Below are positions 6,361-52,064 of a DNA stretch of 64,000 bases, one piece after another. Each line of letters starts with the position of its first letter. Position 1 is the first letter of the stretch. The position numbers were made by a program, and so were the translations under genes. This DNA is from Candidatus Woesearchaeota archaeon (GTDB lineage: Archaea; Nanobdellota; Nanobdellia; Woesearchaeales; JABGXB01). Location: positions 267,821 through 331,820 of the forward strand of contig JABGXB010000003.1 of assembly GCA_018675975.1 (NCBI GenBank). Reading direction: 5' to 3'. Below the pieces are notes generated by a model. It was not told the DNA's origin and made no database searches. It saw only the letters and a program-made list of their open reading frames with translations.

Positions 6361-7473
6361 ATGAAAGTAGATCAAATTAAATTAAATGCAGAAAATTATT
6401 ATAATAGCACTAAATTTGAAACTATAAAATATGGAATAGGAATTAATGTAAATTTAAATAAATTAAATATTGATAAATTAAAATTCAATAATAGTAAAAA
6501 TAAAATAGATATAATTGCAAATAAAAGTGTTAAAATAATAGATTTTTCTAAATTAAAAACAGAAATAAATTATATTAATAAATTAATAAAAGAAGATGAA
6601 AATAAAATAATCTCATTACATTTTTCTAGGTTTAATAGTGGAAAATTAATAATCATACCAAAAGACACAATCATAACTGAACCAATTATAATAAATTCTG
6701 ATTCACAAGATGAAACTGATTTATATAATATAATAATTATAGCCGAAGAATCTTCAAAAGCAAATATAATTGAAATATCAAAATCTAATAATAAAACTAA
6801 ATTAAAAAGTAATATAATACAAATATTTGCAAATAAAAATAGTAATATCAAATATAATTATATTAATTTAAATGATAAAAAAACTAATTGTTTTAATATA
6901 AAAAGATCAGAAATAAAAAAAGATGCAAATATTGATTTCTTAGACGTTAATTTAGGATCAAATTTTAATCAAAATAGTAATAAAACATATTTAAAAGAAA
7001 GTGGAGCAAATACAAATAATTATGCAATTTATTTTACAAATGAAAAACAAAATTATGATATTGATATAGAAAATATACATGATGGTTCAAATACTAATAG
7101 TAATATAATATCAAAAGCAATATTAGATGACGAATCCAAAATAATTTATAGAAGTAATATTAATGTAAATAAAAATTGTAAAAGATGTAATGGACATCAA
7201 AAAGAAAATACATTATTGATAAGTAAAGATTCAAAAATTGATGCAGTTCCTATGTTAGAAATAAATAATGAAGATGTTAATATTAGTCACGGTGTAACAA
7301 TTTCTGATATTGAAGAAGAAAAATTATATTATTTAAAATCTAGAGGATTAGATGAAGAACAATCTAAAGAAATAATTATTAGAGGATTTATTAATGAATT
7401 AATTGACAAAATTGAAGATAAAAACATTTTACAATTAGTTGAAAAAGAAATAAATAAAAAATTAAAAAAATGA
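6361..7473 (+). CDS. sufD: Fe-S cluster assembly protein SufD (divergent, Asn/Ile-rich)
   Basis: A SufB/D-family C-terminal beta-helix with ISHGVTISDIEEEKLYYLKSRGL. It lies immediately after sufB. Confidence 0.8.
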   Translation: MKVDQIKLNAENYYNSTKFETIKYGIGINVNLNKLNIDKLKFNNSKNKIDIIANKSVKIIDFSKLKTEINYINKLIKEDENKIISLHFSRFNSGKLIIIPKDTIITEPIIINSDSQDETDLYNIIIIAEESSKANIIEISKSNNKTKLKSNIIQIFANKNSNIKYNYINLNDKKTNCFNIKRSEIKKDANIDFLDVNLGSNFNQNSNKTYLKESGANTNNYAIYFTNEKQNYDIDIENIHDGSNTNSNIISKAILDDESKIIYRSNINVNKNCKRCNGHQKENTLLISKDSKIDAVPMLEINNEDVNISHGVTISDIEEEKLYYLKSRGLDEEQSKEIIIRGFINELIDKIEDKNILQLVEKEINKKLKK

Positions 7474-18111: not shown

Positions 18112-18678
18112 TTATAAAGGTTTAGAAAATAATTTATTTTTAAATTCAGTCAATTTTTTATCATAATGTAATTTTAAAATATATTGTGATAAGTAATGAA
18201 ATCTAAATTTAAAATCAGTAACATATTTTAAAAATTCATTCCAATTACACTCAATTACTTTTATTTTTTCTCCATTATCTAATGATTGATCATATTTTTT
18301 AATACAATTTTTTGCAATATAAAAATGACAATTCCATTTAATTTTCCCATCTTTATTAAACACTTTAAACAATTTCCAATCATTTGAAACAAAACCACTC
18401 TCTTCTTTTAATTCTCTTTTTGCTGCTTGTAATGGAGTTTCTCCATTATCAATTCTACCACCAAAACAACCATGAACCCAATTATTCATACTAGGTTGAG
18501 TTTCATAAGGAATACATATTTTATTATCTTTTATTGCCAAAATTTGAACACCATCTGCTGTAACTGCAGTTTCAAAATATCCAACTTTACCATCATACAT
18601 TTTTTCTTTCCAAGAATAAATATCAATAAATTTACCAGAATATTTTTTTTTCAAATTATTTTTTTTATTAAAACTCAT
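18112..18678 (-). CDS. NUDIX hydrolase
   Basis: Nudix box GGRIDNGETPLQAAKRELKEESGF. Confidence 0.85.
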   Translation of the reverse strand: MSFNKKNNLKKKYSGKFIDIYSWKEKMYDGKVGYFETAVTADGVQILAIKDNKICIPYETQPSMNNWVHGCFGGRIDNGETPLQAAKRELKEESGFVSNDWKLFKVFNKDGKIKWNCHFYIAKNCIKKYDQSLDNGEKIKVIECNWNEFLKYVTDFKFRFHYLSQYILKLHYDKKLTEFKNKLFSKPL

Positions 18679-18711: not shown

Positions 18712-19335
18712 TTATTTTTTAAAATCTTTTAAAACCATTTCTAATAAATCAGAATTACAATTAAATTTTTTTATTAATTCATGCTCAATATGTCTATTCC
18801 ATTTATAATTTTTCAAATAAACAGGTATTCCTTCATTTGCACATTCTAATGCATACCTTTCTGAATCTTCAACTATAAAAAGTCCATTATTTATTTTAAT
18901 TAATTCTGGTTTAGTAGGTCCATATCCATGATAATATTTTGTTGCAAAAAGTACTTTTTCAACTGAAGGAAAATGTAAACGGATATAATTTTCAGTATCT
19001 CCATATGTATCCATTAATCGACTAGTTAAACATTGAATTCTAAAATATTCAGACAAATCATTAATACAATTTTGTGCATGTGCAATTGGTATTAAATTTG
19101 TATAAGCACCATTTTTGATATATTTCTGAAAAATACTTATTACATATTTAGAATCATGATTAGTGTGAGTAGTAATATCAGCAGATTTTAAATTTTCAAA
19201 TAAAAGTCTATCATTACCAACTAAACCATGATATTCATTCCAAAAATTACAAAAATCAGGTAATAAATGCACTAAAACTTCATCAATATCAAAAAAAATT
19301 AATTTTTTAGAATTATCATTTAAATCAAATTTCAT
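18712..19335 (-). CDS. HAD-superfamily 5'(3')-deoxyribonucleotidase-like phosphatase
   Basis: HAD motif I FFDIDEVLV, and a C-terminal FIVEDSERYA...YKWN pattern resembling the NT5C family. Confidence 0.6.
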   Translation of the reverse strand: MKFDLNDNSKKLIFFDIDEVLVHLLPDFCNFWNEYHGLVGNDRLLFENLKSADITTHTNHDSKYVISIFQKYIKNGAYTNLIPIAHAQNCINDLSEYFRIQCLTSRLMDTYGDTENYIRLHFPSVEKVLFATKYYHGYGPTKPELIKINNGLFIVEDSERYALECANEGIPVYLKNYKWNRHIEHELIKKFNCNSDLLEMVLKDFKK

Positions 19336-24455: not shown

Positions 24456-25112
24456 TTAAATATTATTTTTAGAATTATTATAAATATATTTTGCAGCATC
24501 CAAAAAATCTTTTGCAATAAAAATATCTCCTTTTAATTGTTCAACTTTTTGTCTATCTCCTAGTTCTCTTGTTTTATAACTTTCAACTAAAATTCCAGTT
24601 CCTCCAATATTTAAACCCATTTGAACGTCAGAAAAACGATCCCCAATCATATAAATTTTACAATCTTCTTTTTTTACATTTAAATCAGTTAATGCTTTTT
24701 CAATCATACCAATATTTGGTTTTAAATCAAGACAGTTTTCTCTAATATATTTTTGATCTACTCTTCTTCCTTTTTCTAGTGCTTTTTTTACATAATTAGA
24801 ATCAACAAATGGACATGCATAATAATGATCAACTAAAGCTTCTTCATCTCTTAATTTATCTAAAATATATCTATTTACTTCATGCATTCTCTCAAAGGTT
24901 AAATTATCAAAATTTCCTCCTTCAAGTGCAACTCCAGATTGATTAGTTAAAATAAAAAACCGTGAATTTGGAATCTGATTAATTAATTTAATTCCATCCA
25001 CAACACCATCTAAAAAACTAACTTGTTCACGCCAATTAGAACTACTACCTAAATAAAAATTTTTATCTAAATTTATAGTCCCATCCCTATCAGAAAAAAC
25101 TAAAGTATACAT
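24456..25112 (-). CDS. HAD-IIIA phosphatase (GmhB/HisB-N-like)
   Basis: Motif I FSDRDGTIN, motif II LTNQSG, motif III KPNIGM, and motif IV GDRFSD. Confidence 0.7.
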   Translation of the reverse strand: MYTLVFSDRDGTINLDKNFYLGSSSNWREQVSFLDGVVDGIKLINQIPNSRFFILTNQSGVALEGGNFDNLTFERMHEVNRYILDKLRDEEALVDHYYACPFVDSNYVKKALEKGRRVDQKYIRENCLDLKPNIGMIEKALTDLNVKKEDCKIYMIGDRFSDVQMGLNIGGTGILVESYKTRELGDRQKVEQLKGDIFIAKDFLDAAKYIYNNSKNNI

Positions 25113-29273: not shown

Positions 29274-31034
29274 ATGAATTATCAAATGAAGAATTTTTCC
29301 ACTGAGCAAACTGAATTATTAAGATCATTTCTTTTTACAGCTCCACATAGTAATGTAAGTTTAATTTATCCACAACAATTAGTTGCAGGTGAAGAACTAG
29401 CCCCATTAATTTCAGCATATTCAAGAAGCAATCAACCACTTCAAGAAAGAGTATTAGAATTTGTTGATAAACAAAAAAATACAGAAGCTAAAGCACTATT
29501 ACCACATTTACCAGAATTAATGAAAACATTTAGAAATGAAGATGGTTCATTAAAAATTAGTAAAAAAACAAGAAACTTTTCTAAAAAATGGGTTCTTGCG
29601 CACGGTCACAGTTCAATAAAAGAAATGAATTCTATTTTTGGATGTGTTGAAGGAATTTCAGACATTTGTGGAAAATTAATTACTGGACATCCTTTAGCCC
29701 ACCCTCAAGTTAAGTCATCAAGATATATTTCTTTTGAAGATACATTAGATATGGCATTAGTAGATCCAGACATTCAAAACTTATCTTGTTCAAATGAAAT
29801 TATAGAACATTTAAAAGAATTAAATACAGAATATCTTAATGCAACTAAATATTTAGCAAATGCAGTATTTAAATCTGAAGAAACTGATCAAATAAGAGAA
29901 TTTTTAACTCGAGACTCAGTATTAGATATGCATGGTGAAAAATTATTTAATCGTGCTAAAAAAAAAGATCCAGAATTAGTAAAAACTGACACATTAATAG
30001 AAGAATTAAAATCACAGGCTTATGAAAATATAAATAGTGATGAGTATGTAATGGGACAACTTGAAAAATTTGTTCTTGATAGAAGTAGAGTATATTTACC
30101 TGGTTCAACTAGAACAAGTTTAGGTTTTATGATTGATGGTAGAACATGTGAAGAAATCATTACAACATTATTAACTAGTCCTTTAATAGAAGCCCAAAGT
30201 TTTGGTAATCAAATTTGGACTGAAACAAAAAAAATCTCACCTGTTTTATTAGGAGATCAATCCCATATTAAAAAAGATGAATGGAAATATGAGTTAGATA
30301 CGGACTTTAGAAAAGAATTAGCTACACGATTAGATTATATTGTCATGCACTCTGAACAAAAATTTGGAAGAGTTTATTCACCAAGCTTTGTACATTCAAG
30401 AGGAGAAGATACAAGATCTGCAGTTATGGCTGCATATAAATATAGTGATTTTTCTTTTGATGATTTAATAGAACAATTAAAAGAAAAAGATGTTAAATGG
30501 ATTTTAGATAGAACTCACGAACATAGAAATAAATTTGATCAATTACATGAAAGTGGTGGTCATGGTGGTATGCTTACTGAAATGACTATGCCATATCATG
30601 GTTATAGAGATATGTTTAGACATAGAAAAGGAGCAAGATCTAATCAATTATATACAACAGTTCACGGTTTTGAAAATGTTGAAATTTTTAATCATTTTGA
30701 TATAAATTCAAGATATGAATTATTAATGAATAAAAATAATGAATTATTTAGAAAAGCAGCAAAAGAAAATCCCCATGCTGCACAAAAAGTTGTTGCCTTT
30801 GGTCAATTATGTAGAGCAGCACACAGTTGGTCATTAGAACAAATTGGATATATTGCAAGAATAAGAGCGAATATTGAAACCGGAAATATTAGTTATGTAA
30901 AAACTGTTCATCAAATTGTAGATGGTGTAAAAAGATTATCACCACAATTAGCATCAAAAATAAATTATAATCAAGAAATGTTTCCAGAACATATTTGGAA
31001 AGAAGGTTATGATTTATTTAGAAGTAAAAAATAA
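29274..31034 (+). CDS. thyX: Long-form (tandem-fold) ThyX-like flavin-dependent thymidylate synthase
   Basis: Motifs YSRS and HGHSSIKE (compare ThyX HGHxxxxEH) in the first half. The first half reads GHPLAHPQVKSSRY (SxRY kept, RHR lost). The second half reads FRHRKGARSNQ (RHR kept) and AHSWSLEQIGYIARIR. An AGGTG Shine-Dalgarno lies at 29264-29268. Confidence 0.7.
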   Translation: MNYQMKNFSTEQTELLRSFLFTAPHSNVSLIYPQQLVAGEELAPLISAYSRSNQPLQERVLEFVDKQKNTEAKALLPHLPELMKTFRNEDGSLKISKKTRNFSKKWVLAHGHSSIKEMNSIFGCVEGISDICGKLITGHPLAHPQVKSSRYISFEDTLDMALVDPDIQNLSCSNEIIEHLKELNTEYLNATKYLANAVFKSEETDQIREFLTRDSVLDMHGEKLFNRAKKKDPELVKTDTLIEELKSQAYENINSDEYVMGQLEKFVLDRSRVYLPGSTRTSLGFMIDGRTCEEIITTLLTSPLIEAQSFGNQIWTETKKISPVLLGDQSHIKKDEWKYELDTDFRKELATRLDYIVMHSEQKFGRVYSPSFVHSRGEDTRSAVMAAYKYSDFSFDDLIEQLKEKDVKWILDRTHEHRNKFDQLHESGGHGGMLTEMTMPYHGYRDMFRHRKGARSNQLYTTVHGFENVEIFNHFDINSRYELLMNKNNELFRKAAKENPHAAQKVVAFGQLCRAAHSWSLEQIGYIARIRANIETGNISYVKTVHQIVDGVKRLSPQLASKINYNQEMFPEHIWKEGYDLFRSKK

Positions 31035-31066: not shown

Positions 31067-31696
31067 ATGAATTTAAGTATATATAGTGAGATTCCAATGC
31101 ATCAAGTTATTGAAGAAGTTAGAAAATCCCCTATGTTAAAATCTGATACTCAATTTCCTTACAAAAATGCAAATATTAGTTTACGTAATGTCGGTATGGG
31201 TGAAATTAATCCAACAAGTTTATATGCATTAAAAGCTAATTTGGATTTTCAAAAAAACTTAAGAGAATATATATTAAATAGATTTGGTTTTGATACATTA
31301 AGATTAAGTTCTGGTCTTATATTAGAAAATAAAGATGGGGAGCGTCAAACATTAATACCTCCTATAGTTGAAGTATCAGAAAGAGAAGTTAAGTTCATTC
31401 CACAAAAAGATGAATTATCATATGAAAATTCATATAAAATAAAAATACCGTGTTTACTTGATGGTATTCATCGCGCACTATGTGCAAAAGAATTAGGTAT
31501 AGATTTAAATGTAATTTTTATTTATGATTCAGATACCAATTATCCTGTTTATGCACATCCAAATGAATGGGATTTAGTTAAAATTTGTGATAGTATACCA
31601 AAAGAAAAAAGTCAAAAAAAAATGTATTTAAGAGATGATCATTCTAGTTTGTATAAATCATTTGCACACTTAGGTTCAAGTGGTCTTAGAAAATGA
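31067..31696 (+). CDS. ParB/sulfiredoxin-fold (ParB N-terminal domain-like) protein
   Basis: Signature LIPPIVEV...IPCLLDGIHRALCAKELGIDLNVIFI, matching the DGxHR core of ParB-NTD-like domains. Its stop overlaps the next start (ATGA). Confidence 0.6.
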   Translation: MNLSIYSEIPMHQVIEEVRKSPMLKSDTQFPYKNANISLRNVGMGEINPTSLYALKANLDFQKNLREYILNRFGFDTLRLSSGLILENKDGERQTLIPPIVEVSEREVKFIPQKDELSYENSYKIKIPCLLDGIHRALCAKELGIDLNVIFIYDSDTNYPVYAHPNEWDLVKICDSIPKEKSQKKMYLRDDHSSLYKSFAHLGSSGLRK

Positions 31697-32850
31697 GTAA
31701 TTTAGTTTTAGTTGAAGGAATAAGTGGAGCTGGTAAAAGTACAGCAATTAATTTTATTCAATCTTATCTTTCAACATTCAATATTCAAAGTCACACATTT
31801 AATGAACCCGGTCATATGCGAGATGAAATTAAAAAATATCATAATAGAGAAGACAGAGATCTTCAATTAGAATTTGATCATTATGTTTTATCCAGAAAAG
31901 TTGATTTACATCATAAAGTAATGCCAACTATAAAAAATCACCCAAAGGATACTATCCTCATTGATCGAAGTTGGATTTCTACAATGGTTTATCAACAAAC
32001 AGAACAATGTCCAATGATAAATATTCGTGATTATCATTCCTTTTATCCCAAACACAATTTAGCATTACTCTTAATTTGTGATCCTGAAACTGCATATCAA
32101 AGAATTTTAAAAAGAAAAGAAACTCAAGGAATAGAATTAAGTACATCTGAAAATCCAAAAAGAATTGCTGAACTTAGAAAAAGTTATATTGAAGCATTTG
32201 ATTTAGTAGATTATTCTGTAATTATTAATACTGATGGAAGTGAAAATGCAGTTAATTGTATTTTAAAATCTTATATGAATAAATTATTAGGAATTAAAGA
32301 AAAAAAAATTGTTTTTTTAGATAAAGATGGTACTTTAGTTGACAATTCTAAATATCCAGAAGTAATTCCAACGGATGAAATTCTTTTTGCAGATACATTA
32401 GAAGGATTATATAAATTAAAAAGTGCAGGATATGAATTTCATATGATTTCTTCTCAACCATGGGTTGCTAAAGGTCAATTAAGTTTAGATCAAACAAATG
32501 AAATTTTTGAAAGTGTTATAGAACAATATAAAAAATATGGAATTGAATTTACTGGATATGGTTTTTGTGAACATCATAGAAGTGATAATTGTCCAGATAA
32601 AAAACCAAATACAGGTTTATTAGAACAAATAGCAACTCAACAAAATATTGATATTTCTCAAAGCTTTTTTATAGGAGATATGGAATCGGATATTGAATGC
32701 GGTTATAATTTTGGATTACAAACTGGATTAGTAACTAAATATTCAAATGCAAAAACAATAGATAATTTATCTCAACAAAGATTTAAAAGAACTCCAAATT
32801 ATACTGCAATTAATTTGAATGAAATTGCAAATCAAATAATTGAAAATTAA
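31693..32850 (+). CDS. Fusion protein: thymidylate-kinase-like P-loop kinase (N-terminal) plus HAD-IIIA phosphatase (C-terminal)
   Basis: The N-terminal half has VEGISGAGKST, NEPG and LIDRSWISTMVYQQ (Tmk-like). From about residue 205 it has FLDKDGTLV, ISSQP, CEHHRSDNCPDKKPNTG and IGDMESD (GmhB/PNK-3'-phosphatase-type HAD). Confidence 0.75.
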   Translation: MSNLVLVEGISGAGKSTAINFIQSYLSTFNIQSHTFNEPGHMRDEIKKYHNREDRDLQLEFDHYVLSRKVDLHHKVMPTIKNHPKDTILIDRSWISTMVYQQTEQCPMINIRDYHSFYPKHNLALLLICDPETAYQRILKRKETQGIELSTSENPKRIAELRKSYIEAFDLVDYSVIINTDGSENAVNCILKSYMNKLLGIKEKKIVFLDKDGTLVDNSKYPEVIPTDEILFADTLEGLYKLKSAGYEFHMISSQPWVAKGQLSLDQTNEIFESVIEQYKKYGIEFTGYGFCEHHRSDNCPDKKPNTGLLEQIATQQNIDISQSFFIGDMESDIECGYNFGLQTGLVTKYSNAKTIDNLSQQRFKRTPNYTAINLNEIANQIIEN

Positions 32851-33025
32851 TATTTGTTAATTATATTAATTAAAAAAACTAAATTGTTTTTTTTTTGTAA
32901 AAAGAGTTCGAACGTTAATTCCTTACATTTGAATTTAATGAATATATAAAAACAAAAAAACAATATAATTCACTAAGCAGATAAAACAAAACATTATAAA
33001 GCAAATGTATCTATAAAAATAATAC

Positions 33026-33041
33026 ACACTAGGAATAGTGT
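33026..33041 (+). promoter_or_regulatory. Candidate NrdR box 1 (palindrome acactaggaatagtgt)
   Basis: A 16 bp site with perfect inverted ACACTA/TAGTGT arms that resembles the NrdR-box consensus as I remember it (acaCwAtATaTwGtgt). It lies just downstream of a TATA-like ctataaaa (33011-33018) in the 304 bp region upstream of nrdR. Confidence 0.5.
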
Positions 33042-33154: not shown

Positions 33155-33604
33155 ATGAAATGCCCACATTGTAATTCAGATGATTTGAAAGTAAATGAAA
33201 CAAGAGAAACAGAATCAAATAGTTTTAGAAGAAGAAGAGAATGCAATAATTGTGAAGAAAGATTTACTACATATGAAAAAATTCAAGAATTATTAATTAG
33301 TGTAAAAAAAGAAAGTGGAAAATTAGAAAATTATACTAAAGAAAAATTAGAAAAAAGTTTTTTGATTGCTTGTAATAAAAGACCAATAACAAGAATTCAA
33401 ATATTAAAAATTATTGAAAACATTGAAAATAAAATAAGAAATAATTTTAAAAATGAAATTTCATCTAAGACATTAGGTGAATATGTAATGGAAGAATTAA
33501 AAATTTTAGATCCAATATCATATATTAGATATGCTTCAGTATACAAAGATTTTGATGATTTAGATAAATTTAATCAAGAATTAATATTATTAAAGGTGAA
33601 TTGA
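33155..33604 (+). CDS. nrdR: Transcriptional repressor NrdR
   Basis: N-terminal zinc ribbon CPHC...CNNC with ERFTTYE, followed by an ATP-cone. About 150 aa. It sits immediately upstream of the RNR gene. Confidence 0.9.
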   Translation: MKCPHCNSDDLKVNETRETESNSFRRRRECNNCEERFTTYEKIQELLISVKKESGKLENYTKEKLEKSFLIACNKRPITRIQILKIIENIENKIRNNFKNEISSKTLGEYVMEELKILDPISYIRYASVYKDFDDLDKFNQELILLKVN

Positions 33605-36600
33605 ATGGAACAAAGTATTGAAACAAAACGAACTGGTATAAAAGTTAAAAAAGTTTTTTGTAGTGATAATATAAGCCCATTTGAAACTGTTGAATTTGAA
33701 AACAGATCAAGTGTGATAAAAAATAGAGATGGTTCTATATTATTTGAAATAAATAATATTCATGCTCCAAAAAAATGGTCGCAAGTTGCCGTAGATATAA
33801 TGGCACAAAAATATTTTAGAAAAAGTGGAGTTCCACAATATGATGAAAATCAAAATGAAATTAAAGATGAATTTTCAAATATAATTACAGGTTCAGAAAC
33901 AGATATTACTCAACCAATAAAAAGATTAACTGGATGTTGGAGACATTGGGGAGAAAAATATAATTATTTTGATACGCAACAAGATGCAATTAATTTTGAA
34001 CAAGAAATACAATATATGTTATTACATCAAATCGCTGCACCAAATAGTCCACAATGGTTTAATACGGGACTTAAATGGGCATATAATATTTCTGGAAGTG
34101 CACAAGGACATTATTATGCTGAACATGAAACAGGTGAAATTAAATTATCTGAGGATGCATATTCAAGACCTCAACCGCATGCATGTGCGGATTATTATAC
34201 ACAAGTGTATACTGATAAGGGTACAATGTATATTGGAGATATAGTTGAAAATAATTTAACTAATATAAAAGTATTTGATGGAGAAAAATATGTAAAAGTT
34301 CTTGCAATCAAAAACAATGGAAAAAAAGAAGTGTTTAAAATTCAATTAAAAAATGGAAATTATATTAAATTAACTCAAGATCATTTAGTGCTATCATCAC
34401 AAAAAAGAAAAAAAAATGGTGGAAATTATAACTGGAATTATGTAAAAGATGTAAAATTAGGTCACAAATTACAACAACCATTAATTCTAGATATTAAAGA
34501 AAAAAATGTATTTAGTGATGATTTAGCAAAAGCAAGATTAGCCGGTTGGATAGTTGGAGACGGATCAGTTGGAATTTATGAAAATGTAATGAGATTGGAA
34601 ATTATTTCTATTAAAGAAGAAGAATTTGAATCAATAATAAATGATATTCAAGAAGTATTTGGACAAGAAGTTAATTTTTGGATTAGTAAATTTAAAACAA
34701 AAAACGAAAATTTAGATGGTAAAAGAATTCATTTAGCAGGTAAAAAAATACATAAATTAATTGAAGACTATGATTTACTAAAATCTTCATTTAATGCAGA
34801 AGTACCTCAAAAAATAATTAATGGGTCACCACAAGAAAAAAGAGAATTTTTAAAAGCCTTATTTCAAGCAGATGGTTGTGTCAGAATTAGAAAAGATGAA
34901 AATAGAAATTCAGGAGATGTGTGTTTAACTACAATTTCAGAAAATCTTTCATTTGGAGTTTTACAATTATTAAATTCATTAGGTATTTATTGTAGAATTA
35001 ATAAATATAGTGATAAAAGAGAAAATCGAAAAGATGTTAATCAAGTTATAGTATCTTATGGTAGTGCAAGAGAACAATTTCAAGAACAAATTTCTTTTAT
35101 ATGTTCTCAAAAAACCGAAAAATTAGAATTATTAAATAAAATTATAACAAAATCAAAAACACTTCCATTAATAAGAGAAGAAACAATTATTTCAATTGAA
35201 TCTGAAGGCATTAAAGATGTTTATGATATTCAAACAGAATCTTCAAAATTTCTTGGAAATGGAATTGTAATACATAATTGTTTTATTCAATCAGTTAAAG
35301 ATGATTTAGTTAATCAAGGTGGAATATTTGACCTTTGTACAAGAGAGGCAAGAATATTTAAATATGGTTCTGGAACTGGTTCAAATTTTTCACAATTAAG
35401 AGGTCAGTCTGAAAAATTATCAGGTGGTGGAAGATCTTCAGGTATGATGTCATTTTTAAAAATATTTGATGTGGCAGCTGGAGCAATTAAATCAGGTGGT
35501 ACAACAAGACGTGCAGCAAAAATGGTTTGTCTTGATTTGGATCATCCAGAAATTATTGAATTTATTGATTGGAAAGCAAATGAAGAAAAAAAAGTTGCTA
35601 ATTTAATTACTGGTTCAAAAAATTCAAAATATCATTTACAAAAAATATTAAAAGAAGCAAGTTCAAATTCAAATATAGAAAAAAATCCAAAATTAAAATC
35701 AGCAATTAAAGAAGCTATTGAACAAAATATTTCTTTAAATTATATTGATAGAGTTTTAAAACTTGCAAATCAAGGAATAACTGAATTTGAAACTCCCGAG
35801 TTTGATAATCATTTTGAAGGTGAAGCATATTCTACAGTTAGTGGACAAAATTCAAATAATTCAATAAGAATACCAAATTCATTTTATGAAGCTGTTCATA
35901 AAGACTTAGATTGGAATTTAAAAAATAGAACTGATGGAAAAATTTCAAAAACTGTAAGAGCAAAATGGCTTTATGATAAAATTGGACAAGCTGCTTGGGC
36001 TTGTGCAGATCCTGGTGTTCAATTTGATACGACAATTAATGAATGGCATACATGTCCAAAAGATGGAAGAATTAATGCAAGTAATCCTTGTTCTGAATAT
36101 ATGTTTTTAGATGATACTGCATGTAATTTAGCTAGTATTAATTTAATTCATTTTATTAATGATAGTGGACATTTTAATGAAGAAAAATTTGCTCATGCAT
36201 GTGAACTTATGACAATTGTTTTGGAAATTTCAGTTACTATGGCTCAATTTCCAAGTGATGAAATTGCAAAAAGAAGTTGGGAATATAGAACATTAGGTTT
36301 AGGTTTTGCAAATTTAGGGACATTACTCATGGTTAAAGGAATTTCTTATGATAGTGATGAAGCTAGAAGTATAGCTGGAGGAATTAGTGCCATAATGTGT
36401 GGAACTGCTTATGAAACATCTGCTAAACTCGCAAAACATCTAGGACCTTTTAACAGATATGAACATAATAAAGATGACATGTTAAGAGTTATTAGAAATC
36501 ATAGACGTGCTGCATATAATGTTTCAAATGAAGAGTATGAAAAATTAGAAATTACTCCAGTTGGCATTGATGAAAATTTATGTCCAAATAATATTTTACA

Positions 36601-38146
36601 AAAAGCTAGAAATTCATGGGATAATGCACTTGAACTTGGACAAGAATATGGATTTAGAAATGCACAAGTAACTGTTATTGCACCAACCGGAACTATTGGA
36701 CTTTTAATGGATTGTGATACTACAGGAGTTGAGCCAGACTTTGCAATTGTTAAATATAAAAAACTTGCAGGCGGTGGTTATTTTAAAATTGTAAATCATT
36801 CAGTTATTAAAGCATTGAGAACTTTAGGTTATGAAAAAGATCAAATTATTGATATTAAAAAATATTGTATAGGTCATCAAACATTAGTGGGTTGTCCAAC
36901 CATAAATCATAAAATTTTAAAAGATAAAGGATTTGATGAAGAAAAATTAGAACTTATTGAAAAACAATTAGAAACTGCATTTGATTTGAGTTTTGTTATG
37001 AATAAAAATATTTTAAGTGAAGAATTTTTAAAAAAATTAGGATTTAGTGATGAACAATTAAATTCTGAAATGTTTGATTTACTAGAAGAATTAAAATTTA
37101 CAAAAGAACAAGTTGATATTGCAAATGAATATGTTTTTGGAACAATGACAGTTGAAGATGCTCCATACTTATTAGAAGAACATTATTCAGTTTTTGATTG
37201 TGCAAATAAATGTGGAAAAAAAGGTAATAGATATATTGACACTTATGGACATATTAATATGATGGCAGCAGTTCAACCTTTTATTTCTGGTGCAATTAGT
37301 AAAACAATTAATATGGATTCAGAAGTTAGTGTTAAAGATATTTTAGATGCTTATGAAGCTAGTTGGAAATTAATGCTTAAAGCAAATGCATTATATAGAG
37401 ATGGATGTAAATTAAGTCAACCATTAAATACTGCTGTTTTTGAAAGTGAATACAATTTAAATTTATCTGAAGAAGATATTGATGAAACAGTTGATTCAGC
37501 AGCAATTCAACAACAAATTCAAACAATGAAAGCAAATCAGTTGCCGAGAAAAAGAGGTGGTTTTGTTCAAGAAGCAACTGTTGCAGGTCACAAAATATAT
37601 TTAAGAACTGGTGAATATAATGACGGAAAATTAGGTGAAATTTTTATTGACATGTATAAGGAAGGTGCTGCCTTTAAAGCACTAATAAATTGTTTTGCAG
37701 TTGCAATAAGTAAATCTCTACAATTTGGTGTTCCTTTAGAAGAATTTGTTGAACAGTTTACATTTACTAGATTTGAACCGGCAGGTTTAGTAACTGGACA
37801 TGAATATATTAAAAATTCTACGTCAATATTAGATTATGTATTTCGTGTTCTAGGCTATGAATATTTAGGTAGAGATGATTTAATTCATGTAAAACCTAAA
37901 AGAAAACCACTAGACATTATAGAACATGAAGATGATCCAAGAGATAAACATAAAACACTAGATAGTTTTTCTAATAGAAAAAATGTAGAAGAGACTAGAA
38001 ACGAAATGCTTTTTAAAAAAATTAATACTGCCAAATCAAGAGGATATACTGGAGAAGCATGTGGTTCTTGTGGTAGTATGAGAGTAAAAAGAAATGGAAG
38101 TTGTACACTTTGTGAAGATTGTGGTTCTACTAGTGGTTGCAGTTAG
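33605..38146 (+). CDS. nrdJ: Class II (adenosylcobalamin-dependent) ribonucleotide reductase, interrupted in frame by one intein
   Basis: Blocks [24 protein letters not shown] active-site region, [27 protein letters not shown], and a C-terminal Cys-rich tail CGSCGS...CTLCEDCG. The protein is 1513 aa including the 365 aa intein. Confidence 0.9.
34184..35278 (+). mobile_element. Intein with LAGLIDADG homing-endonuclease domain inside nrdJ
   Basis: It begins with Cys (PQPHA|CADYY) and ends with HN followed by Cys (GIVIHN|CFIQSV). The two LAGLIDADG blocks are [11 protein letters not shown] (34538-34570) and [11 protein letters not shown] (34850-34882). Removing the insert restores the conserved HACFIQSV extein sequence. 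Confidence 0.85.
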
Positions 38147-40023: not shown

Positions 40024-41961
40024 TTAATTGTTATATTTATTAAAAATAAAAATACCAGAACCTAAAATAAATATACTAAAAAAGATAAAAATATACCAAA
40101 TTATATTAACCATTTTACTATTTGTACTATTTTGAATTTCATTTACAATAATATTGCTATTTAATGAATCTTCATTTGAATTGATATTAATATTATTTAA
40201 TTCTAAATTTAAATTTAATAATTTTTTTTCCATTTCATTTCTTTTTGATTCCATTTCTAAATTAATTTTATCAATCTTATTTTTTAATTCATTATTCATA
40301 TTATTAACATCCTTTGAATTATCAACAATATTTGAATTATCATTTAAGCATTTAATTACATTAATTGAAATTGATTTTTTCAATAATTCATTATTATTTT
40401 TATTAAATGCTTGTAAAATAATATCACGTTCCCCTAATTTATTATTAATATTATAATTAAAACTAAAAGATTGATCATCTCCTTCATCTAAACTAAATTC
40501 TTTATTTAATTCAATATCATCATCAGTTAATTGTAAAGTTAAGTCTTCAATATCTCTACTACCAACATTTACTAAATCTCCATTTATTTTTATACCATTA
40601 AATGAACATAAATCTATTTCTTTTGTATAAAATAAATTATCAATAATTAATTCTTCTCTATCTTTTTTTATTTTTACTCTGATAGTAAAATTTGCTTCAT
40701 GAAAATAACTCTCATTATCCAATACACTAGCATATAAATTGAAATTTGATCTTTCTTCTTTATTATCAAATGGTATTATTGATTCATCAAAATCAATATC
40801 AATAGTTTCACAATCATTTTTTACAATATCTAATTCTTCTTCATCAATATCAATTCTAAACATTTCACCATATAATCTTATATTTTCTAAATCTGTATTT
40901 TTTACATTACAAATTTTAACTTCAGCTGATATTTGATCCCCTACTTTAAAATCATCATCATAGGCTCTACCTGAATTATCAAAACGTTCTTTTTTATCAT
41001 TTCTATGTAATTTTACAAATTCAAATTCAAGTGGATTTTTAGGATTTACATTAATTTTTCCATCAATTGTAATTACTTCATTTAAAACATTTGTTAATTC
41101 TAATTGAAAACTATTTTCACCATAATTTAATTGAGGATTAAAAATAATATCATTAACTTCCAGTCCATTAAATTTCCATTTATAATTTACAATAAAATTA
41201 CTATTTGTTAAATCTAAAAATTGTTCATATAAGTTAAATGAACTTAAATCCTCTTCATTTAAATTAATAGTAATATTATTATTTAATGATAAAAAATCAC
41301 TATGTGTTTTATTTGTTACAATAGTATATATTTTCCCATTAGGAATATTATTACTATCATTTTTTTGAAATAAAACATGCAAATAAAGATTCTTATTTTG
41401 ATAATTAATTAAATCACCATCATTTAAAATAATTGTAAGTTTTTTATCACCGCCTTGATAAAAAGGATAAACATTCCAATCATCTTTATTTAAACCAAAT
41501 TTTTCATAAGTAAAATCATCATTTGAATTTAAAATTAAAGCATTCCATAAAAAATTCATTCCACTATTAATATATCTACTAATCAATTCTGAATATATTA
41601 TTTCATTTGAATCATTAGGTCTATCAATTACATTTATAGTTTCTTGTTTAATTTTATATTGACCTAAACTATTTTTTAAAATAAATGTAATATTATGAAT
41701 TCCACTATTATGATATACATGATTTATATTATTTAAATTATAATGTTTTAATTCATTTGTACCAAAATCAACTATTGAATAATCTAAATTAAAACCGCTT
41801 TGAGTTAAAGTATTTAATGTAAAATTAAAAGGCTCATTTACATAAATAGTTGTAGGTAATTCCACAGTATAATCCATACCATTTTCAAATACACCATTTA
41901 CAGAAATTAAACTAATTGATATAAAAAATATTAAAACTAATAATTTATTTATTATTTTCAT
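40024..41961 (-). CDS. Large surface protein (signal peptide, beta-rich ectodomain, coiled coil, C-terminal TM anchor)
   Basis: N-terminal signal segment LLVLIFFISISLISVNG and C-terminal TM segment IIWYIFIFFSIFILGSGIFIF. It shares a ~150 aa module with the upstream paralog. Confidence 0.6.
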   Translation of the reverse strand: MKIINKLLVLIFFISISLISVNGVFENGMDYTVELPTTIYVNEPFNFTLNTLTQSGFNLDYSIVDFGTNELKHYNLNNINHVYHNSGIHNITFILKNSLGQYKIKQETINVIDRPNDSNEIIYSELISRYINSGMNFLWNALILNSNDDFTYEKFGLNKDDWNVYPFYQGGDKKLTIILNDGDLINYQNKNLYLHVLFQKNDSNNIPNGKIYTIVTNKTHSDFLSLNNNITINLNEEDLSSFNLYEQFLDLTNSNFIVNYKWKFNGLEVNDIIFNPQLNYGENSFQLELTNVLNEVITIDGKINVNPKNPLEFEFVKLHRNDKKERFDNSGRAYDDDFKVGDQISAEVKICNVKNTDLENIRLYGEMFRIDIDEEELDIVKNDCETIDIDFDESIIPFDNKEERSNFNLYASVLDNESYFHEANFTIRVKIKKDREELIIDNLFYTKEIDLCSFNGIKINGDLVNVGSRDIEDLTLQLTDDDIELNKEFSLDEGDDQSFSFNYNINNKLGERDIILQAFNKNNNELLKKSISINVIKCLNDNSNIVDNSKDVNNMNNELKNKIDKINLEMESKRNEMEKKLLNLNLELNNININSNEDSLNSNIIVNEIQNSTNSKMVNIIWYIFIFFSIFILGSGIFIFNKYNN

Positions 41962-41972: not shown

Positions 41973-44039
41973 TTAAATATAAACTAATAAAATAAGTCCA
42001 AATATTAACATCAATACAACACCAATTGCTATAATTAATAATATTGTTTGTTTTTTTTGTTCTGATTTATTTAAATTATCTTGTAAATCATTATCTAAAT
42101 TTATGTTTTGATTTTCTAATAATAATTTTTTATATTCACTAATAAAATCATCATTATTATTTTCAACACCATTTAATTCATTTAATAATTTTAAATTCTT
42201 TTCATATAAATCTTGATCAGTTTGAATATTATTTGAACAATCATTTAATGAAATATCTAATTCTTTATAGTCAACTATATAATTATCCCTATATACTTCT
42301 GCAAAAAATTTATACTGTCCAATGGATGCAGAATTTGGAAAATTAAAATTTGTGAAAGCACTAAATTCATTATCATTTTTATAATCAATATCGAAATCTT
42401 TTATTGATTCAAAATTGAATTGCTCTGAATAAAATCTAACATGCCCATTTTCATCATTATCACCAATATTAAATATTAATGCAGATAATGAAATTGCTTT
42501 ATTATCAAAACAATTTTGTACTACAGTTGGAGTTACTAAAAATTTTTTGAATAATAAATCATGATTTTTTCTATCTACTTTTAATTTAACTGTAAAATTA
42601 TCTTCTTGAAAATAATCTAAATCATCTCTACCTTCAATATTAATAAACATATTAAATGTTTTATCTTCAGCATCATAAGGAATGTGATCTTTATCAAATT
42701 TAACTGAACGTACTTCACACTCATCTTCTGATAATGTAAAATCTGATTTCTCATCATCATCTAAATCACTACCATCATCAATATCTTTTATTATAGCACT
42801 AATTGCAATATCTTCAATATTAATATCTGAATTACTATCATAATCATTACATACTTTAATTTCTACACTAAAATCTTGACCTGGCTTAATATCTTTTGAA
42901 TATCTTTCTCCACTATTTCTAATTCTATCTGATTTGTCATTAACAATTACTTTTACTCTATCAATTCTTAACATTTTTCTTTGAATCGGTTTAATATCTG
43001 CTTCAATCACTTTACCATTAAAAGATAATTTAATTTCACCCAATAAATCAATATCTATTGGACGACTTGAACTTGCATGAATATTAAATGTTTTATTTTC
43101 TAATTCATTTAATGCAAAATTAGTTTCAAAATTACTATATTCAATAAATGAATCAAAAGAACTAATATCTAAACCAATATTTTCTAAATTTGATTCACCA
43201 GTATTTTTAACAGTGAAATTAAAATCAAATTCAGATTCTAATCCACTAATATTAATTTGAATTTCATTAGGTATAATTGTTAATTCCTGTATTTTTTCTC
43301 TTACTTCAATATTTGAAATTTGATAATTTTTATTAAAATTAAATTCTGACTGATCTACATTTAAATCGTATTTATACAAACCGCTAACTAAATCATTACT
43401 AATAAAAACTTCAAAACTTAAATTTTTCACTTCAGATTTATTTAATAAAATTATTTTCTTTTCAACATCTAAAGGAAAAAAACTTGATGTTTTTAATAAA
43501 TTATTAAAATTAATTTCAACTTGAGTATCATAATTTGATTGACTAATAAATTCAAATTCAATAGTATTTGTTTTACCCTTTACTATTTTTTTTGTTATTG
43601 CCTTTACATCAAATTGTGTATTTCTAGAAATATCTAAACTAATTGGCAATAATGTTTGTTCAGATTTACTATCTGTTGCAATTATTGTCCCATTATATTT
43701 ACCATAAGTAGGATTATTTGATAAATCAATAAAAAAATCAACTGATTTTTGTCCATTAGCATCAAAATTTCCTAATTGTGCATTTACACCATTTAATTCA
43801 ATAGCTAAAAATTCACCATTAGCATTTGATAAAACAAGTCCACTAAGTGCAATATTTACATTTGTTGAATCTAAATTTGTAATTTTAAACTGACTATTAA
43901 CTTTAGATGTTCTAAGTCCATTACTTAAATCACTTAATTCTATACTTTCTTTGTCAAAATTAGGTACTGCATTACTAAATGCTGAAACTAATGTTGCAAA
44001 TATAATCAAAAATGCAAATAAATGCGTTAATTTTTTCAT
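41973..44039 (-). CDS. Large surface protein, paralog of 40024-41961
   Basis: N-terminal signal segment LTHLFAFLIIFATLVSAFS and C-terminal TM segment ILLIIAIGVVLMLIFGLILLVYI. The shared module aligns as KPGQDFSVEIKVCN... against KVGDQISAEVKICN... Confidence 0.6.
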   Translation of the reverse strand: MKKLTHLFAFLIIFATLVSAFSNAVPNFDKESIELSDLSNGLRTSKVNSQFKITNLDSTNVNIALSGLVLSNANGEFLAIELNGVNAQLGNFDANGQKSVDFFIDLSNNPTYGKYNGTIIATDSKSEQTLLPISLDISRNTQFDVKAITKKIVKGKTNTIEFEFISQSNYDTQVEINFNNLLKTSSFFPLDVEKKIILLNKSEVKNLSFEVFISNDLVSGLYKYDLNVDQSEFNFNKNYQISNIEVREKIQELTIIPNEIQINISGLESEFDFNFTVKNTGESNLENIGLDISSFDSFIEYSNFETNFALNELENKTFNIHASSSRPIDIDLLGEIKLSFNGKVIEADIKPIQRKMLRIDRVKVIVNDKSDRIRNSGERYSKDIKPGQDFSVEIKVCNDYDSNSDINIEDIAISAIIKDIDDGSDLDDDEKSDFTLSEDECEVRSVKFDKDHIPYDAEDKTFNMFINIEGRDDLDYFQEDNFTVKLKVDRKNHDLLFKKFLVTPTVVQNCFDNKAISLSALIFNIGDNDENGHVRFYSEQFNFESIKDFDIDYKNDNEFSAFTNFNFPNSASIGQYKFFAEVYRDNYIVDYKELDISLNDCSNNIQTDQDLYEKNLKLLNELNGVENNNDDFISEYKKLLLENQNINLDNDLQDNLNKSEQKKQTILLIIAIGVVLMLIFGLILLVYI

Positions 44040-49346: not shown

Positions 49347-52064
49347 ATGAAAAATCTAATTTTATTAATATTGACAGGCCAAAAAAACATAATTAAAGTA
49401 GTGATAATACTAGCATTTTTGATGAGTATAGTGATTTTTTTAAATTACAGTCCATCATTAACAGGAAATTTAGTATATGACTCTAAAGCTTTGTTTAATG
49501 AATTTTTAGATGTTGAAATTTTAATTGGAGATAAAATAAATAAATTAACAGATCATATTGAAATAATTTTTGATGATGATATAGTGTTTAAAGGCAGTGT
49601 TCAAAATTTATTTGATGTTAAAGTAATTGTTGGAAGTAATAATTTATCAAGTTTTGAAGAAATAAAAGATTATACATTTAAAAATAATTTAAAAGGAAAT
49701 ATTTTAATTAAACCAGACTTAATAATTACATTAAATATCACAGGAAACAAAACTACAGCTCTTGATCAAAACAATTTAACTCTAACAAACATTACTTATT
49801 TTTTAAATTATAATGGAAGTCAATTAAATTTAGAGGAAAATGAATTTCAAATCATTGAAAATTATAAAAATCTTAATTCAAATTTAACTATTAATGAATA
49901 TTTAAATCAAACGAATAATACATTAAACGAACAAATATTAAATATAGTAAATCAAAATGAATTTAGTTTATCTAATCAAAGTAATTCTTTTAATATTATA
50001 GTACCAGCATCAATTATACAACAAAAATATAATAATATAATAAATATAAGTGAAAATAGTAATTTAAACAATTTAGTAAATGTAAGTATTGATGAATATG
50101 ATTGGAATATAACAAAATTATCGCATACAATTGAATCTAATAATGATAATATTATTTTAGGTAACTTAAAAATACAAGAAATTTATTTTGATTCAGTAAA
50201 TCCATCAATTGTATTTAATAATAATACAATCAATATAAATGAAAATAAAATTAGTGCAGAGTTTATACTAACTTTAGATGACGTTCAATTAAAATTTGCA
50301 AATTTAAAAAATATTGAAAATACAGTGAATTATTCTAATGATATAATAAGTAATTTATTAGAAAACAATTTGAACTGGTATGAAATTAGTCAAATTAATG
50401 GTGAATTTATTTCAGAGGATACAAATTTAGATTATGAAGTTCAAAAAATAAATGATTTTGATTATATAATTAATGGAACTAAAGACACATTATTTTTTGA
50501 TTTTTCAAATTTAAGTATTAATACAAGAGAATTTGACTATAAAAGTAATTCAGACACATTAGGTAAAAAGAATTTCACATTAAAAGTTACTATTGATAAA
50601 AATACTAAACAATATGATTATACAATTGACTTAGCCACATCATGTCAAGAAAATTGGGTTTGCAAACCAGGAACTTGTTTAGCTGACAATACACAAAAGA
50701 ATAATTGTATTGACGAGAATGGATGCGGTACACAATTTTTAAAACCAGTTGAAACCAAAGCCTGTGTTTATAGTTGTACTCAAAATTGGAATTGTACTGA
50801 ATTTAGTCAATGTAATGAATTAAATTTTCAATTTAGAGTTTGTACTGATAAAAATAATTGTCAAAAATATAATAATACTGCAACTAAACTAATTGAAAAA
50901 GAAAAATTAAGTGAAATTCAAAGTTGTAAAGATAATTGTAATGAAGACTGGAGATGTACATCTTGGTCTTCCTGTTCTAAAGATCAAATATATAGAAGTT
51001 GTACTGATAAAAATACATGTGGAAGTGAAATATTAAAACCCAAAGTCGAAGCAAGTTGTAATGAAATAGTCGATGATCAATATTTAAAAATTTATGAAAA
51101 ATTCTTAGAATCTGAAAATTATGTTAATTTATTAAATCCAAAAAAAAATGAAAAAACAGCAAAAAATACATTGATTGAAAAAAAAGAAGAAAAAAAAGAA
51201 ACGAAAACAGAAAATAGATTAGTTGGTTTTTCAATAAAAGAAGAAGATAATTCAACATCTAGCGGAAAAATTATTATTTTTGTATTAATTGCAATGGGAG
51301 TATTATCATTTACATTTAATGAAAGGGGAAATATAAAACAATTTGTTGGTGAAAGTAATAAAAAAGAATATTTTAAAAATTATTTGAATATTAAAAAACA
51401 AAAAGTTTTACAATTATTTAATAGAAATAATGATGAAAATAATCAAAACAATCAAGAGAATAATCAATTTAATAATTTAAGTTATAATTATTCAAACAAT
51501 ATACAAAGTTCTAATATGGATAATAATGTTAATAATAATGATACAAATAACAATTCAGACAATCAAAATAATTTTAATCAAAATATAAAAATTAATAATT
51601 ATAATCCGAATAATCAATCTCAACAATTAAATTCATACTTAAATTATTATCAAAAATTAGGATATAATGATTATCAAATTAAAAGTTTTTTAATGCAAAA
51701 AGGATACAATTTAAGTCAAATAAATGGTTCATTTAATAGTCAATTAGGTCAAAATAATAATGAGAATAATAATATAAAAAAAGAATTTCATTTTGCAACA
51801 GCCGAGAGTAATAAAAAAACTCATCAAATTACAGTTAATAAAAATATATTTAATAATGCATTAGGGCTATTAAAAAATGATTTTGGAATTGCAAAAGCAC
51901 CAACATCTTTAGTTGCAAAAAGAAATTTTTCATTTACTATATCTCTTATTGAAAAAAATGTAGATGAAAATACTATAATTGAAATATTAAAAAAAAAAGA
52001 CATTAGTGAATCAAATGCATTAGAATTAATTGATAGAGCTAAAGAAAAATTAAATAAATTCTAA
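49347..52064 (+). CDS. Large membrane-spanning protein: ectodomain with three Cys-rich repeats, TM segment, Asn/Gln-rich cytoplasmic tail
   Basis: There is an N-terminal TM segment. Three Cys-rich repeats follow: CQENWVCKPGTC...C...C, CTQNWNCTEFSQC...C...C and CNEDWRCTSWSSC...C...C. A second TM segment (IIIFVLIAMGVLSF) is followed by a long N/Q-rich tract. Confidence 0.6.
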   Translation: MKNLILLILTGQKNIIKVVIILAFLMSIVIFLNYSPSLTGNLVYDSKALFNEFLDVEILIGDKINKLTDHIEIIFDDDIVFKGSVQNLFDVKVIVGSNNLSSFEEIKDYTFKNNLKGNILIKPDLIITLNITGNKTTALDQNNLTLTNITYFLNYNGSQLNLEENEFQIIENYKNLNSNLTINEYLNQTNNTLNEQILNIVNQNEFSLSNQSNSFNIIVPASIIQQKYNNIINISENSNLNNLVNVSIDEYDWNITKLSHTIESNNDNIILGNLKIQEIYFDSVNPSIVFNNNTININENKISAEFILTLDDVQLKFANLKNIENTVNYSNDIISNLLENNLNWYEISQINGEFISEDTNLDYEVQKINDFDYIINGTKDTLFFDFSNLSINTREFDYKSNSDTLGKKNFTLKVTIDKNTKQYDYTIDLATSCQENWVCKPGTCLADNTQKNNCIDENGCGTQFLKPVETKACVYSCTQNWNCTEFSQCNELNFQFRVCTDKNNCQKYNNTATKLIEKEKLSEIQSCKDNCNEDWRCTSWSSCSKDQIYRSCTDKNTCGSEILKPKVEASCNEIVDDQYLKIYEKFLESENYVNLLNPKKNEKTAKNTLIEKKEEKKETKTENRLVGFSIKEEDNSTSSGKIIIFVLIAMGVLSFTFNERGNIKQFVGESNKKEYFKNYLNIKKQKVLQLFNRNNDENNQNNQENNQFNNLSYNYSNNIQSSNMDNNVNNNDTNNNSDNQNNFNQNIKINNYNPNNQSQQLNSYLNYYQKLGYNDYQIKSFLMQKGYNLSQINGSFNSQLGQNNNENNNIKKEFHFATAESNKKTHQITVNKNIFNNALGLLKNDFGIAKAPTSLVAKRNFSFTISLIEKNVDENTIIEILKKKDISESNALELIDRAKEKLNKF

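Follow-up and report, generated by a model that had tools for sequence, protein, structure and literature searches.

A kinase–phosphatase fusion gene closes a three-gene operon

We analysed a 64,000-nt stretch from a Candidatus Woesearchaeota archaeon (assembly GCA_018675975.1, contig JABGXB010000003.1, positions 267,821 to 331,820; hereafter, the window), focusing on an open reading frame (ORF) at 31693–32850 (+), whose product combines a thymidylate kinase (Tmk) domain with a phosphatase domain of the HAD-IIIA branch. The ORF is intact from its ATG to its TAA and encodes a two-domain protein of 385 amino acids (aa). It is the last gene of an operon whose first gene (29274–31034, +) encodes a long, divergent ThyX-family protein of 586 aa, recognized by Pfam Thy1. 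The second gene (31067–31696, +) encodes a 209-aa protein of the Pfam family PF24392, named “ParB-like catalytic effector” in UniRef and referred to below as ParB-CE. The stop codon of this second gene overlaps the ATG of the fusion gene. Downstream, a run of ten T, read from the sequence (32887–32896, +; 37 nt past the fusion stop codon), is a possible archaeal oligo-T terminator that would close the operon.

The Tmk domain occupies residues 1–199 (31693–32289, +) and contains the motifs EGISGAGKST (residues 8–17), EPG (38–40), and DRSWISTMVYQQ (91–102). Its P-loop, GISGAGKS (residues 9–16; 31717–31740, +), is near-invariant in ten homologues. The phosphatase domain, assigned to the GmhB/HisB-N type of HAD-IIIA by NCBIfam and Foldseek, spans residues 200–385 plus the stop codon (32290–32850, +) and carries FLDKDGTLV (208–216), ISSQP (252–256), CEHHRSDNC (292–300), KKPNTG (303–308), and GDMESD (328–333). 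Within it, HAD motif I, DKDGT (residues 210–214; 32320–32334, +), would provide the nucleophile Asp210 and the general acid/base Asp212, and the alignment of homologues delineates a Zn loop, C292-E-H294 ... C300-P-D302 (32566–32598, +). This set of motifs far exceeds chance expectation. A preliminary description of the locus had read the protein as a Tmk-like P-loop kinase joined to a HAD-IIIA phosphatase with a Zn-type loop, and this account of the domain make-up stands, with every motif that it quoted present.

An AlphaFold2 model built on the ten homologues was of good quality (pLDDT 87.8, pTM 0.87). Searching it against the PDB with Foldseek returned only Tmk structures (TM 0.75–0.82) and GmhB/HisB-N structures (TM 0.80–0.83), and no PDB chain covered both halves. 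Judged by its sequence, the ORF is thus a fused Tmk and HAD-IIIA phosphatase: the fusion is new, and both enzymes are of a known kind.

The kinase half belongs to the thymidylate kinase family

The Pfam family Thymidylate_kin (PF02223) matched residues 7–184 with an E value of 3.3e-17 (63.2 bits against a gathering score of 27), and the NCBIfam model TIGR00041 gave 69.6 bits, under its cut-off of 83.25. The kinase half aligned end to end with the Tmk of Aquifex aeolicus (PDB 2pbr), including the P-loop, EPG, Y64..R68, D91-R92, and Y100-Q101. The aligned positions are invariant or near-invariant in the ten fusion homologues, with no variation at R68, R92, Q101, or the two LID arginines (R137 and R141). 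We assign to the aromatic-xxx-Arg element, the arginine of the DR motif, the Y-Q base contact, and the basic LID the dTMP-site roles that they have in Tmk structures. Among sequences of solved structures, a profile of the fusion family matched over 30 different Tmk proteins of bacterial, archaeal, eukaryotic, and poxvirus origin, with E values down to 1e-24. The kinase half thus shares with the enzymes of A. aeolicus and S. aureus (2ccj) the fold (TM of about 0.8), the P-loop, the DR motif, the aromatic and arginine contacts, YQ, and the basic LID, and differs from them in its divergence and in the added C-terminal HAD domain. Given its family membership and these residues, it most likely phosphorylates dTMP.

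The phosphatase half is of the GmhB/HisB-N type

Two NCBIfam models were passed over residues 203–359 of the phosphatase half: TIGR01662 (HAD-SF-IIIA; 82.4 bits against a cut-off of 44.6) and TIGR01656 (Histidinol-ppas domain; 86.7 against 84.15). The GmhB equivalogs were not reached (NF006506, 89.7 < 178; TIGR00213, 70.3 < 149.6), and the score was also below the HisB-N equivalog cut-off. The catalytic residues of the HAD fold, D210, D212, T214, S253/S254, K303/K304, D329, and D333, are invariant or near-invariant in the ten homologues, and Foldseek returned the GmhB structure 3l8h (TM 0.83). By its motifs this half is catalytically intact, and it is probably a Mg-dependent phosphomonoesterase.

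The domain shares with GmhB and HisB-N the cap-less core, the DxDxT / S / K / GDxxxD signature, and a Zn loop, and these families gave its best sequence and fold matches. It differs from them in falling below the equivalog cut-offs, in lacking a heptose or histidine gene context, in its ParB-CE neighbour, and in the fourth Zn ligand. E. coli GmhB has the Zn pattern CxH...CxC; the window protein has D302 as the fourth ligand, where four of the ten homologues have Cys, as in CxC. In E. coli GmhB, moreover, a Lys follows the GD of the last motif, where the fusion has Met.

To place the domain among its relatives, we scored fetched loci with a clade profile of the fused HAD. Fused copies scored 233–282 bits, free-standing HADs of other Nanoarchaeia, Woesearchaeota, and Pacearchaeota 193–226 bits, and bacterial free-standing HADs in GmhB contexts 105–137 bits. 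A second HAD gene of the window, at 24456–25112 (−), scored only 42 bits. The preliminary description had called its product a free-standing paralog of the phosphatase half; it is indeed a HAD-IIIA protein (TIGR01662, 55.9 bits, above the cut-off), but it is not closely related (33% identity over 70 aa). This gene lies between those for FtsZ and Spt5, and a long insert in its product replaces the CxH...CxC loop. One of its relatives (P0012) is an NTP-transferase–HAD fusion, hinting that proteins of that lineage work with nucleotide sugars.

The free-standing archaeal orthologues of the fused HAD have a recurring neighbour. In seven loci or locus pairs (L016, L018, L019, L021, L104, L106, and L108/L109), the HAD gene is followed at once by ParB-CE, and these pairs have neither Tmk nor a ThyX-like gene next to them.

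The operon is conserved in Woesearchaeota and Nanoarchaeia

The order long ThyX-like, ParB-CE, Tmk–HAD, with overlapping or abutting reading frames, was found in the window and in loci L001, L003, L006–L011, L013, L099, and L100. The fusion proteins of these loci are 36–44% identical to the window copy. Two further loci (L005 and L012) contain at least ParB-CE and the fusion. In all, the operon is conserved in about 12 Woesearchaeota/Nanoarchaeia loci, and all the sequences come from metagenome-assembled genomes (MAGs) or metagenomes; MAGs with the module include GCA_053576915.1, GCA_964540065.1, and GCA_043803745.1. The fusion itself is rare: we found 11 full-length clusters among 5.8 billion proteins, with relatives from MAGs named Woesearchaeota or Nanoarchaeia, and none of full length in IMG/VR. 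The preliminary description had considered that the fusion might be sporadic. Within its clade it is not, although its taxonomic range is narrow (8 of 185,579 GTDB species).

The closest relatives, from two metagenomes (L102 and L103; 48% identity), share the operon, but in them Tmk (6992–7606) and HAD (7599–8126) are separate genes with an overlap of 8 nt. This arrangement suggests that the window protein arose by fusion of two adjacent, translationally coupled genes. The free-standing Tmk of L102 passes the dTMP kinase equivalog TIGR00041 (108.6 bits against 83.25).

The product of the first gene of the operon matched Pfam Thy1 over residues 96–324 (E = 4.6e-10; 40 bits against a gathering score of 24.8), and orthologues of 555–616 aa lie directly upstream of ParB-CE in at least ten loci. 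By eye, the ThyX motif RHRxxSxxxxSxRY appears split, with S148/R150/Y151 (SxRY) in the N-terminal half and R449-H450-R451 (RHR) in the C-terminal half. The protein resembles a tandem ThyX with complementary degeneration, the N-terminal half being without RHR and the C-terminal half without SxRY. Alignments with hhalign of the halves with T. maritima ThyX (TM0449) and with each other were not significant, so this idea of a tandem duplication with complementary motifs comes from inspection. When the operon was searched with PADLOC, neither ParB-CE nor the ThyX-like protein gave a match, and the fusion gave only Tmk-like ones.

Genes of deoxynucleotide synthesis adjoin several of these operons. 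In the window they are nrdR and the gene for a class II ribonucleotide reductase (RNR), in L007 nrdR and nrdD, and in L003 an RNR gene. In the window, nrdR (33155–33604; TIGR00244, 149 bits) abuts the gene for a 1513-aa class II RNR that contains a LAGLIDADG intein (33605–38146). A perfect palindrome resembling an NrdR box, ACACTAGGAATAGTGT, lies at 33026–33041, about 115 nt upstream of nrdR; the pattern was not found upstream of the ThyX-like operon. NrdR is typically bacterial and is here present in a DPANN archaeon.

ParB-CE is repeatedly linked to thymidylate synthases, Tmk, and phosphohydrolases

ParB-CE is a sizeable family, with 392 clusters at 50% identity distributed over DPANN archaea, bacteria of the candidate phyla radiation (CPR), Actinobacteria, Proteobacteria, and phage-like contigs. 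The family hidden Markov model and the core fold of its predicted structure (pLDDT 97.3) both place it in the ParB/Srx superfamily, and its nearest solved folds are the phosphotransferases Srx, SbnI, and SerK. A DGxHR motif is nearly invariant. ParB-CE differs from these enzymes (sulfiredoxin, SerK, and SbnI) in that only about 90–100 of its 209 residues superpose on them, its set of conserved residues is different, and it has neither detectable sequence similarity to them nor a helix-turn-helix domain. Searches of PDB sequences with the single sequence and with a profile gave no significant match, and a single-sequence word-index search found nothing.

We sampled ParB-CE gene contexts without reference to the fusion protein (L088–L092, P0092, and L179–L183). 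In L090 (3–3432), a ThyX-like gene is followed by ParB-CE, by a ParB-CE–HAD fusion of another HAD subfamily, and by a Tmk of 90.2 bits. In L091 (665–5735), an HD–ParB-CE fusion precedes an HD–Tmk fusion (Tmk 122.3 bits), with a NUDIX protein two genes on. A ParB-CE–NUDIX fusion occurs in L092, and a kinase resembling Tmk and deoxynucleoside kinases directly follows ParB-CE in the P0092 locus. On a phage-like contig with a terminase match (L179, 4545–6642), a gene for a fusion of a ThyA-family domain (ThyA-like, 34.7 bits) with a pterin-binding domain overlaps that of ParB-CE. Finally, in Nomurabacteria of the CPR (L180–L183, e.g., GCA_020427915.1, 1892–6157), a dCTP deaminase (DCD) gene and a gene for a 774-aa Tmk–ThyX fusion diverge from a pair of ParB-CE and HAD-IA genes, all inside the secE-nusG-rplK-rplA-rplJ cluster. 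The ThyX of this fusion (L180) has the same long form as the ThyX-like protein of the window. The CPR proteins narrowly miss their equivalog cut-offs (ThyX half, 80.1 against 87.9; DCD, 90.5 against 92.8).

ParB-CE is therefore tied by fusion or by overlapping operon to Tmk, to both non-homologous families of thymidylate synthase (TS), and to phosphohydrolases of three non-homologous superfamilies. In both L180 and L090 the HAD partner is a capped HAD-IA protein; the nearest named families, all below cut-off, include pyrimidine 5'-nucleotidases, which points to a small-molecule nucleotide substrate. Since the place of the hydrolase is filled elsewhere by non-homologous enzymes, the HAD half of the window protein, too, probably cleaves a small phosphorylated nucleotide or sugar and not a polynucleotide end.

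Other copies of ParB-CE have different surroundings. On a huge-phage-like contig (L088/L089), neither Tmk nor TS is nearby. The L088 copy (6001–7556 of a 157 kb ENA contig; the same protein occurs on contigs up to 658 kb) has a 200-aa C-terminal extension and is followed by a small SLOG/DprA-like protein, and HNH, HU, Cpn10, and clamp-loader genes are present.

In the literature, we found no description of ParB-CE, of a Tmk–HAD fusion, or of a link between ParB and thymidylate; in a paper on a ParB-dependent phage T-dioxygenase, the ParB is of the chromosome-segregation type and acts on DNA. The link of ParB-CE to thymidylate metabolism thus appears undescribed.

A candidate module for the synthesis of dTTP precursors

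Thymidylate synthase, Tmk, ParB-CE, and a hydrolase recur together in minimal genomes, beside genes for RNR, NrdR, or dCTP deaminase, and this combination suggests a free-nucleotide pathway to dTTP. We favour the reading that the fusion is a bifunctional enzyme acting on free pyrimidine deoxynucleotides within a dTTP-synthesis module. It also seems fairly likely that the operon as a whole is the thymidylate module of Woesearchaeota/Nanoarchaeia, with equivalent modules in CPR bacteria. As their family membership would predict, the ThyX-like protein would convert dUMP to dTMP, and the Tmk half, as the organism’s thymidylate kinase, would convert dTMP and ATP to dTDP. Given the phosphotransferase-like fold of ParB-CE (similar to Srx and SerK), the simplest reading is that it and the phosphatase form a dephosphorylation/rephosphorylation pair, which might supply or police the monophosphate pool.

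Such a pair could work in more than one way. A deoxypyrimidine nucleotide may be dephosphorylated and a nucleoside or nucleotide re-phosphorylated, as in the route of T. brucei through a nucleotidase, cytidine deaminase, and thymidine kinase (TK). Alternatively, the hydrolase may yield dUMP from dUDP or dUTP, with ParB-CE standing in for a missing kinase (such as TK or nucleoside diphosphate kinase, NDK). Any specific role for the pair of HAD and ParB-CE is tentative, and we would not be surprised if the true one were different. The preliminary description had also offered a kinase and a phosphatase acting at different positions of a nucleotide- or sugar-like molecule; for such a scheme, ParB-CE is the more likely kinase partner.

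The same description had argued that a kinase fused to a phosphatase would be futile for free dTMP. This objection retains less force than it first had, because thymidylate clusters repeatedly show Tmk fused to, or in an operon with, non-homologous phosphohydrolases, and there is an experimental precedent in T. brucei. That organism depends for its dTTP on a 5'-nucleotidase together with cytidine deaminase and thymidine kinase, in a route that also includes TS and TMPK, and an HD-domain candidate for the 5'-nucleotidase was shown to dephosphorylate dNMPs (PMC5098729). There, as proposed here, a phosphatase and kinases cooperate toward dTTP, and in L091 an HD hydrolase occupies the phosphatase place. 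The T. brucei route differs in using separate enzymes and a classical TK, whereas the candidate kinase of the archaeal module has a ParB/Srx fold and the roles are predicted from family and context.

Several observations weigh against this dTTP-precursor reading. The ThyX-like protein scores only 26.9 bits with the thyX equivalog TIGR02170 (cut-off 87.9) and has no significant match among PDB sequences in single-sequence or profile searches; so divergent a protein might not make dTMP. The Tmk half of the window scores 69.6 bits with TIGR00041, below the NCBIfam equivalog cut-off of 83.25, a threshold that the module’s Tmk proteins in L102, L091, and L090 exceed. Some ParB-CE genes (L088 and L092) have no Tmk or TS gene nearby, and the UniRef label of ParB-CE calls it an effector. 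Finally, the nearest bacterial relatives of the HAD half sit among genes for GT9 heptosyltransferases, HldE-like proteins, and other glycosyltransferases, which is the context of GmhB and would allow a sugar-bisphosphate substrate. Together with the ParB-CE neighbour of the archaeal copies, these bacterial contexts suggest that the HAD domain descends from GmhB-like enzymes and has newly acquired a conserved association.

The fusion acts as a Rosetta stone: through it, the widespread ParB/Srx-fold family PF24392 and a set of interchangeable phosphohydrolases are connected with thymidylate synthase and kinase. DPANN and CPR, which have the smallest known cellular genomes, show this link, and so do phages. 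Should ParB-CE and the hydrolase perform a missing step toward dTTP, for example by replacing TK, NDK, or dUTPase, a gap in the metabolic reconstruction of these symbionts would be filled and the ParB fold would gain a new catalytic role.

Alternative explanations

The preliminary description had likened the protein to T4 polynucleotide kinase-phosphatase (Pnkp) and suggested that it heals nucleic-acid ends. The analogy was tempting: a kinase and a DxDxT phosphatase share one chain, in the same order as in T4 Pnkp (literally so, with Tmk at residues 1–199 and HAD at 200–385), both phosphatases lie in the broad HAD-IIIA branch, and a cap-less HAD-IIIA would suit large substrates. Pfam PNK3P was passed marginally (24.6 against 22), under much stronger GmhB/HisB matches, and the family profile matched mammalian PNKP among PDB sequences weakly and through the phosphatase domain only (25.8 bits against 90.5 for GmhB); T4 Pnkp was not among the matches listed. 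We nevertheless consider the analogy wrong, and a 5'-kinase and 3'-phosphatase acting on DNA or RNA ends is extremely unlikely. The kinase matches Tmk in every test, another P-loop family than that of Pnkp, and no polynucleotide kinase matched it in the Pfam, NCBIfam, PDB-sequence, or Foldseek searches. According to the preliminary description itself, a kinase half grouping inside Tmk with the dTMP-binding residues would speak against end healing, and both the matches to more than 30 Tmk structures and the retained contact positions place it there. The phosphatase, in turn, is about 65 bits nearer to GmhB/HisB-N; it scored 33.8 bits with the DNA-3'-phosphatase model TIGR01664, far below the cut-off of 107.65, and its match to TIGR01663 (PNK-3'Pase) was confined to residues 199–330 and likewise far below cut-off. 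No structure spans both halves, the operon contains no ligase or repair genes and points to nucleotide synthesis rather than repair, and in other lineages the corresponding place is taken by small-molecule enzymes of the capped HAD-IA, HD, and NUDIX types. These family tests limit the likeness to T4 Pnkp to domain order and the broad HAD-IIIA branch. Also unlikely, in our estimate, is that the HAD half is a plain GmhB, a heptose 1,7-bisphosphate phosphatase for glycans, whose fusion to Tmk was a neutral accident of adjacency. Its best named matches are indeed GmhB, the bacterial relatives have the glycosyltransferase neighbours described above, and in L102 a GT4 glycosyltransferase gene adjoins the HAD gene. 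However, it lies under every GmhB equivalog cut-off, and in the loci examined neither GmhA nor HldE nor a heptosyltransferase is encoded near any archaeal copy. Moreover, ParB-CE stays its immediate neighbour across Nanoarchaeia, with Tmk attached or not, and HAD-IA, HD, and NUDIX proteins fill the same place beside ParB-CE and Tmk in other lineages.

Two further possibilities concern the module rather than the phosphatase. A TS homologue, a dNMP kinase, and a phosphohydrolase form the classic signature of prereplicative base replacement, and all three are present here. In a pathway resembling those of phages T4, SPO1, and PBS2, the divergent TS homologue would make a C5-modified dUMP or dCMP, the Tmk-like half would phosphorylate the modified dNMP, the HAD, HD, or NUDIX protein would destroy the canonical nucleotide, and ParB-CE would add a step. 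Both TS partners of ParB-CE are long and divergent (the ThyX-like protein at 40 bits, and the phage ThyA-like protein with its pterin-binding fusion at 34.7 bits), ParB-CE occurs on phage-like contigs (L088/L089, and L179 with its terminase), and the futile-cycle problem would disappear. Against such a pathway, which we regard as improbable, the operon is chromosomal and has housekeeping surroundings (NrdR and RNR, or a ribosomal-protein cluster in CPR), Tmk copies of the module pass the dTMP kinase equivalog, and the thymine-contact residues are kept in the kinase half of the fusion. In addition, the CPR ThyX and DCD are nearly equivalogs (80.1 against 87.9 and 90.5 against 92.8), and IMG/VR contains no full-length fusion. 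That the module would make a C5-modified pyrimidine dNTP instead of ordinary dTTP, with the hydrolase removing the canonical nucleotide, is accordingly a long shot; if true, some DPANN and CPR cellular genomes would carry a prereplicatively modified base, and a ParB-fold enzyme would catalyse a new step. The other possibility is that ParB-CE and the hydrolase are a nucleotide-degrading or nucleotide-sensing effector pair, a conflict or pool-control device merely co-localised with the thymidylate genes, the phosphatase regulating or draining the dTMP/dUMP pool in a substrate cycle with Tmk. The UniRef name, the NTPases among ParB-fold proteins, and the NUDIX and HD fusions would fit this picture, and in eukaryotes dNTP pools are controlled by substrate cycles of kinases and nucleotidases. 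We give it only a small chance: PADLOC did not match ParB-CE, none of the neighbours seen was of the immunity, toxin, or sensor type, and in these minimal genomes, which seldom keep dispensable regulators, the operons show translational coupling to ThyX and Tmk.

Other features of the window

The window has a G+C content of about 23% and carries archaeal FtsZ, Spt5, GatD/GatE, and CDC48 genes, a Suf cluster, and tRNAs. Its gene content and the relatives of the fusion protein mark it as part of the chromosome of a DPANN archaeon. Six large ORFs (476–905 aa) have no Pfam match at an E value of 1e-4 or better: 11712–13850 (−), 40024–41961 (−), 41973–44039 (−), 49347–52064 (+), 55264–56763 (+), and 57619–59049 (+). 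In four of the other archaeal loci, a gene for a multi-pass membrane protein of about 725 aa is convergent to the HAD or fusion gene (L005, 9103–11268 (−); L016, 4570–6753 (−); L017, 872–3061 (−); and L020, 8585–10750 (−)). The four copies are 20–24% identical, with many invariant positions. We considered this gene as a possible ThyX relative and rejected it, as the product is a membrane protein and has no Pfam match.

Two regions of the window encode other candidate nucleotide enzymes. A NUDIX hydrolase gene adjoins that of an NT5C-type 5'(3')-deoxyribonucleotidase (18112–18678 (−) and 18712–19335 (−), respectively), which suggests that the genome has a separate, classical deoxynucleotidase. 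The ORF at 60376–61878 (−) encodes a protein resembling AMP and thymidine phosphorylases (Glycos_trans_3N, Glycos_transf_3, and PYNP_C), possibly a component of the pentose bisphosphate pathway by which archaea salvage nucleotides.

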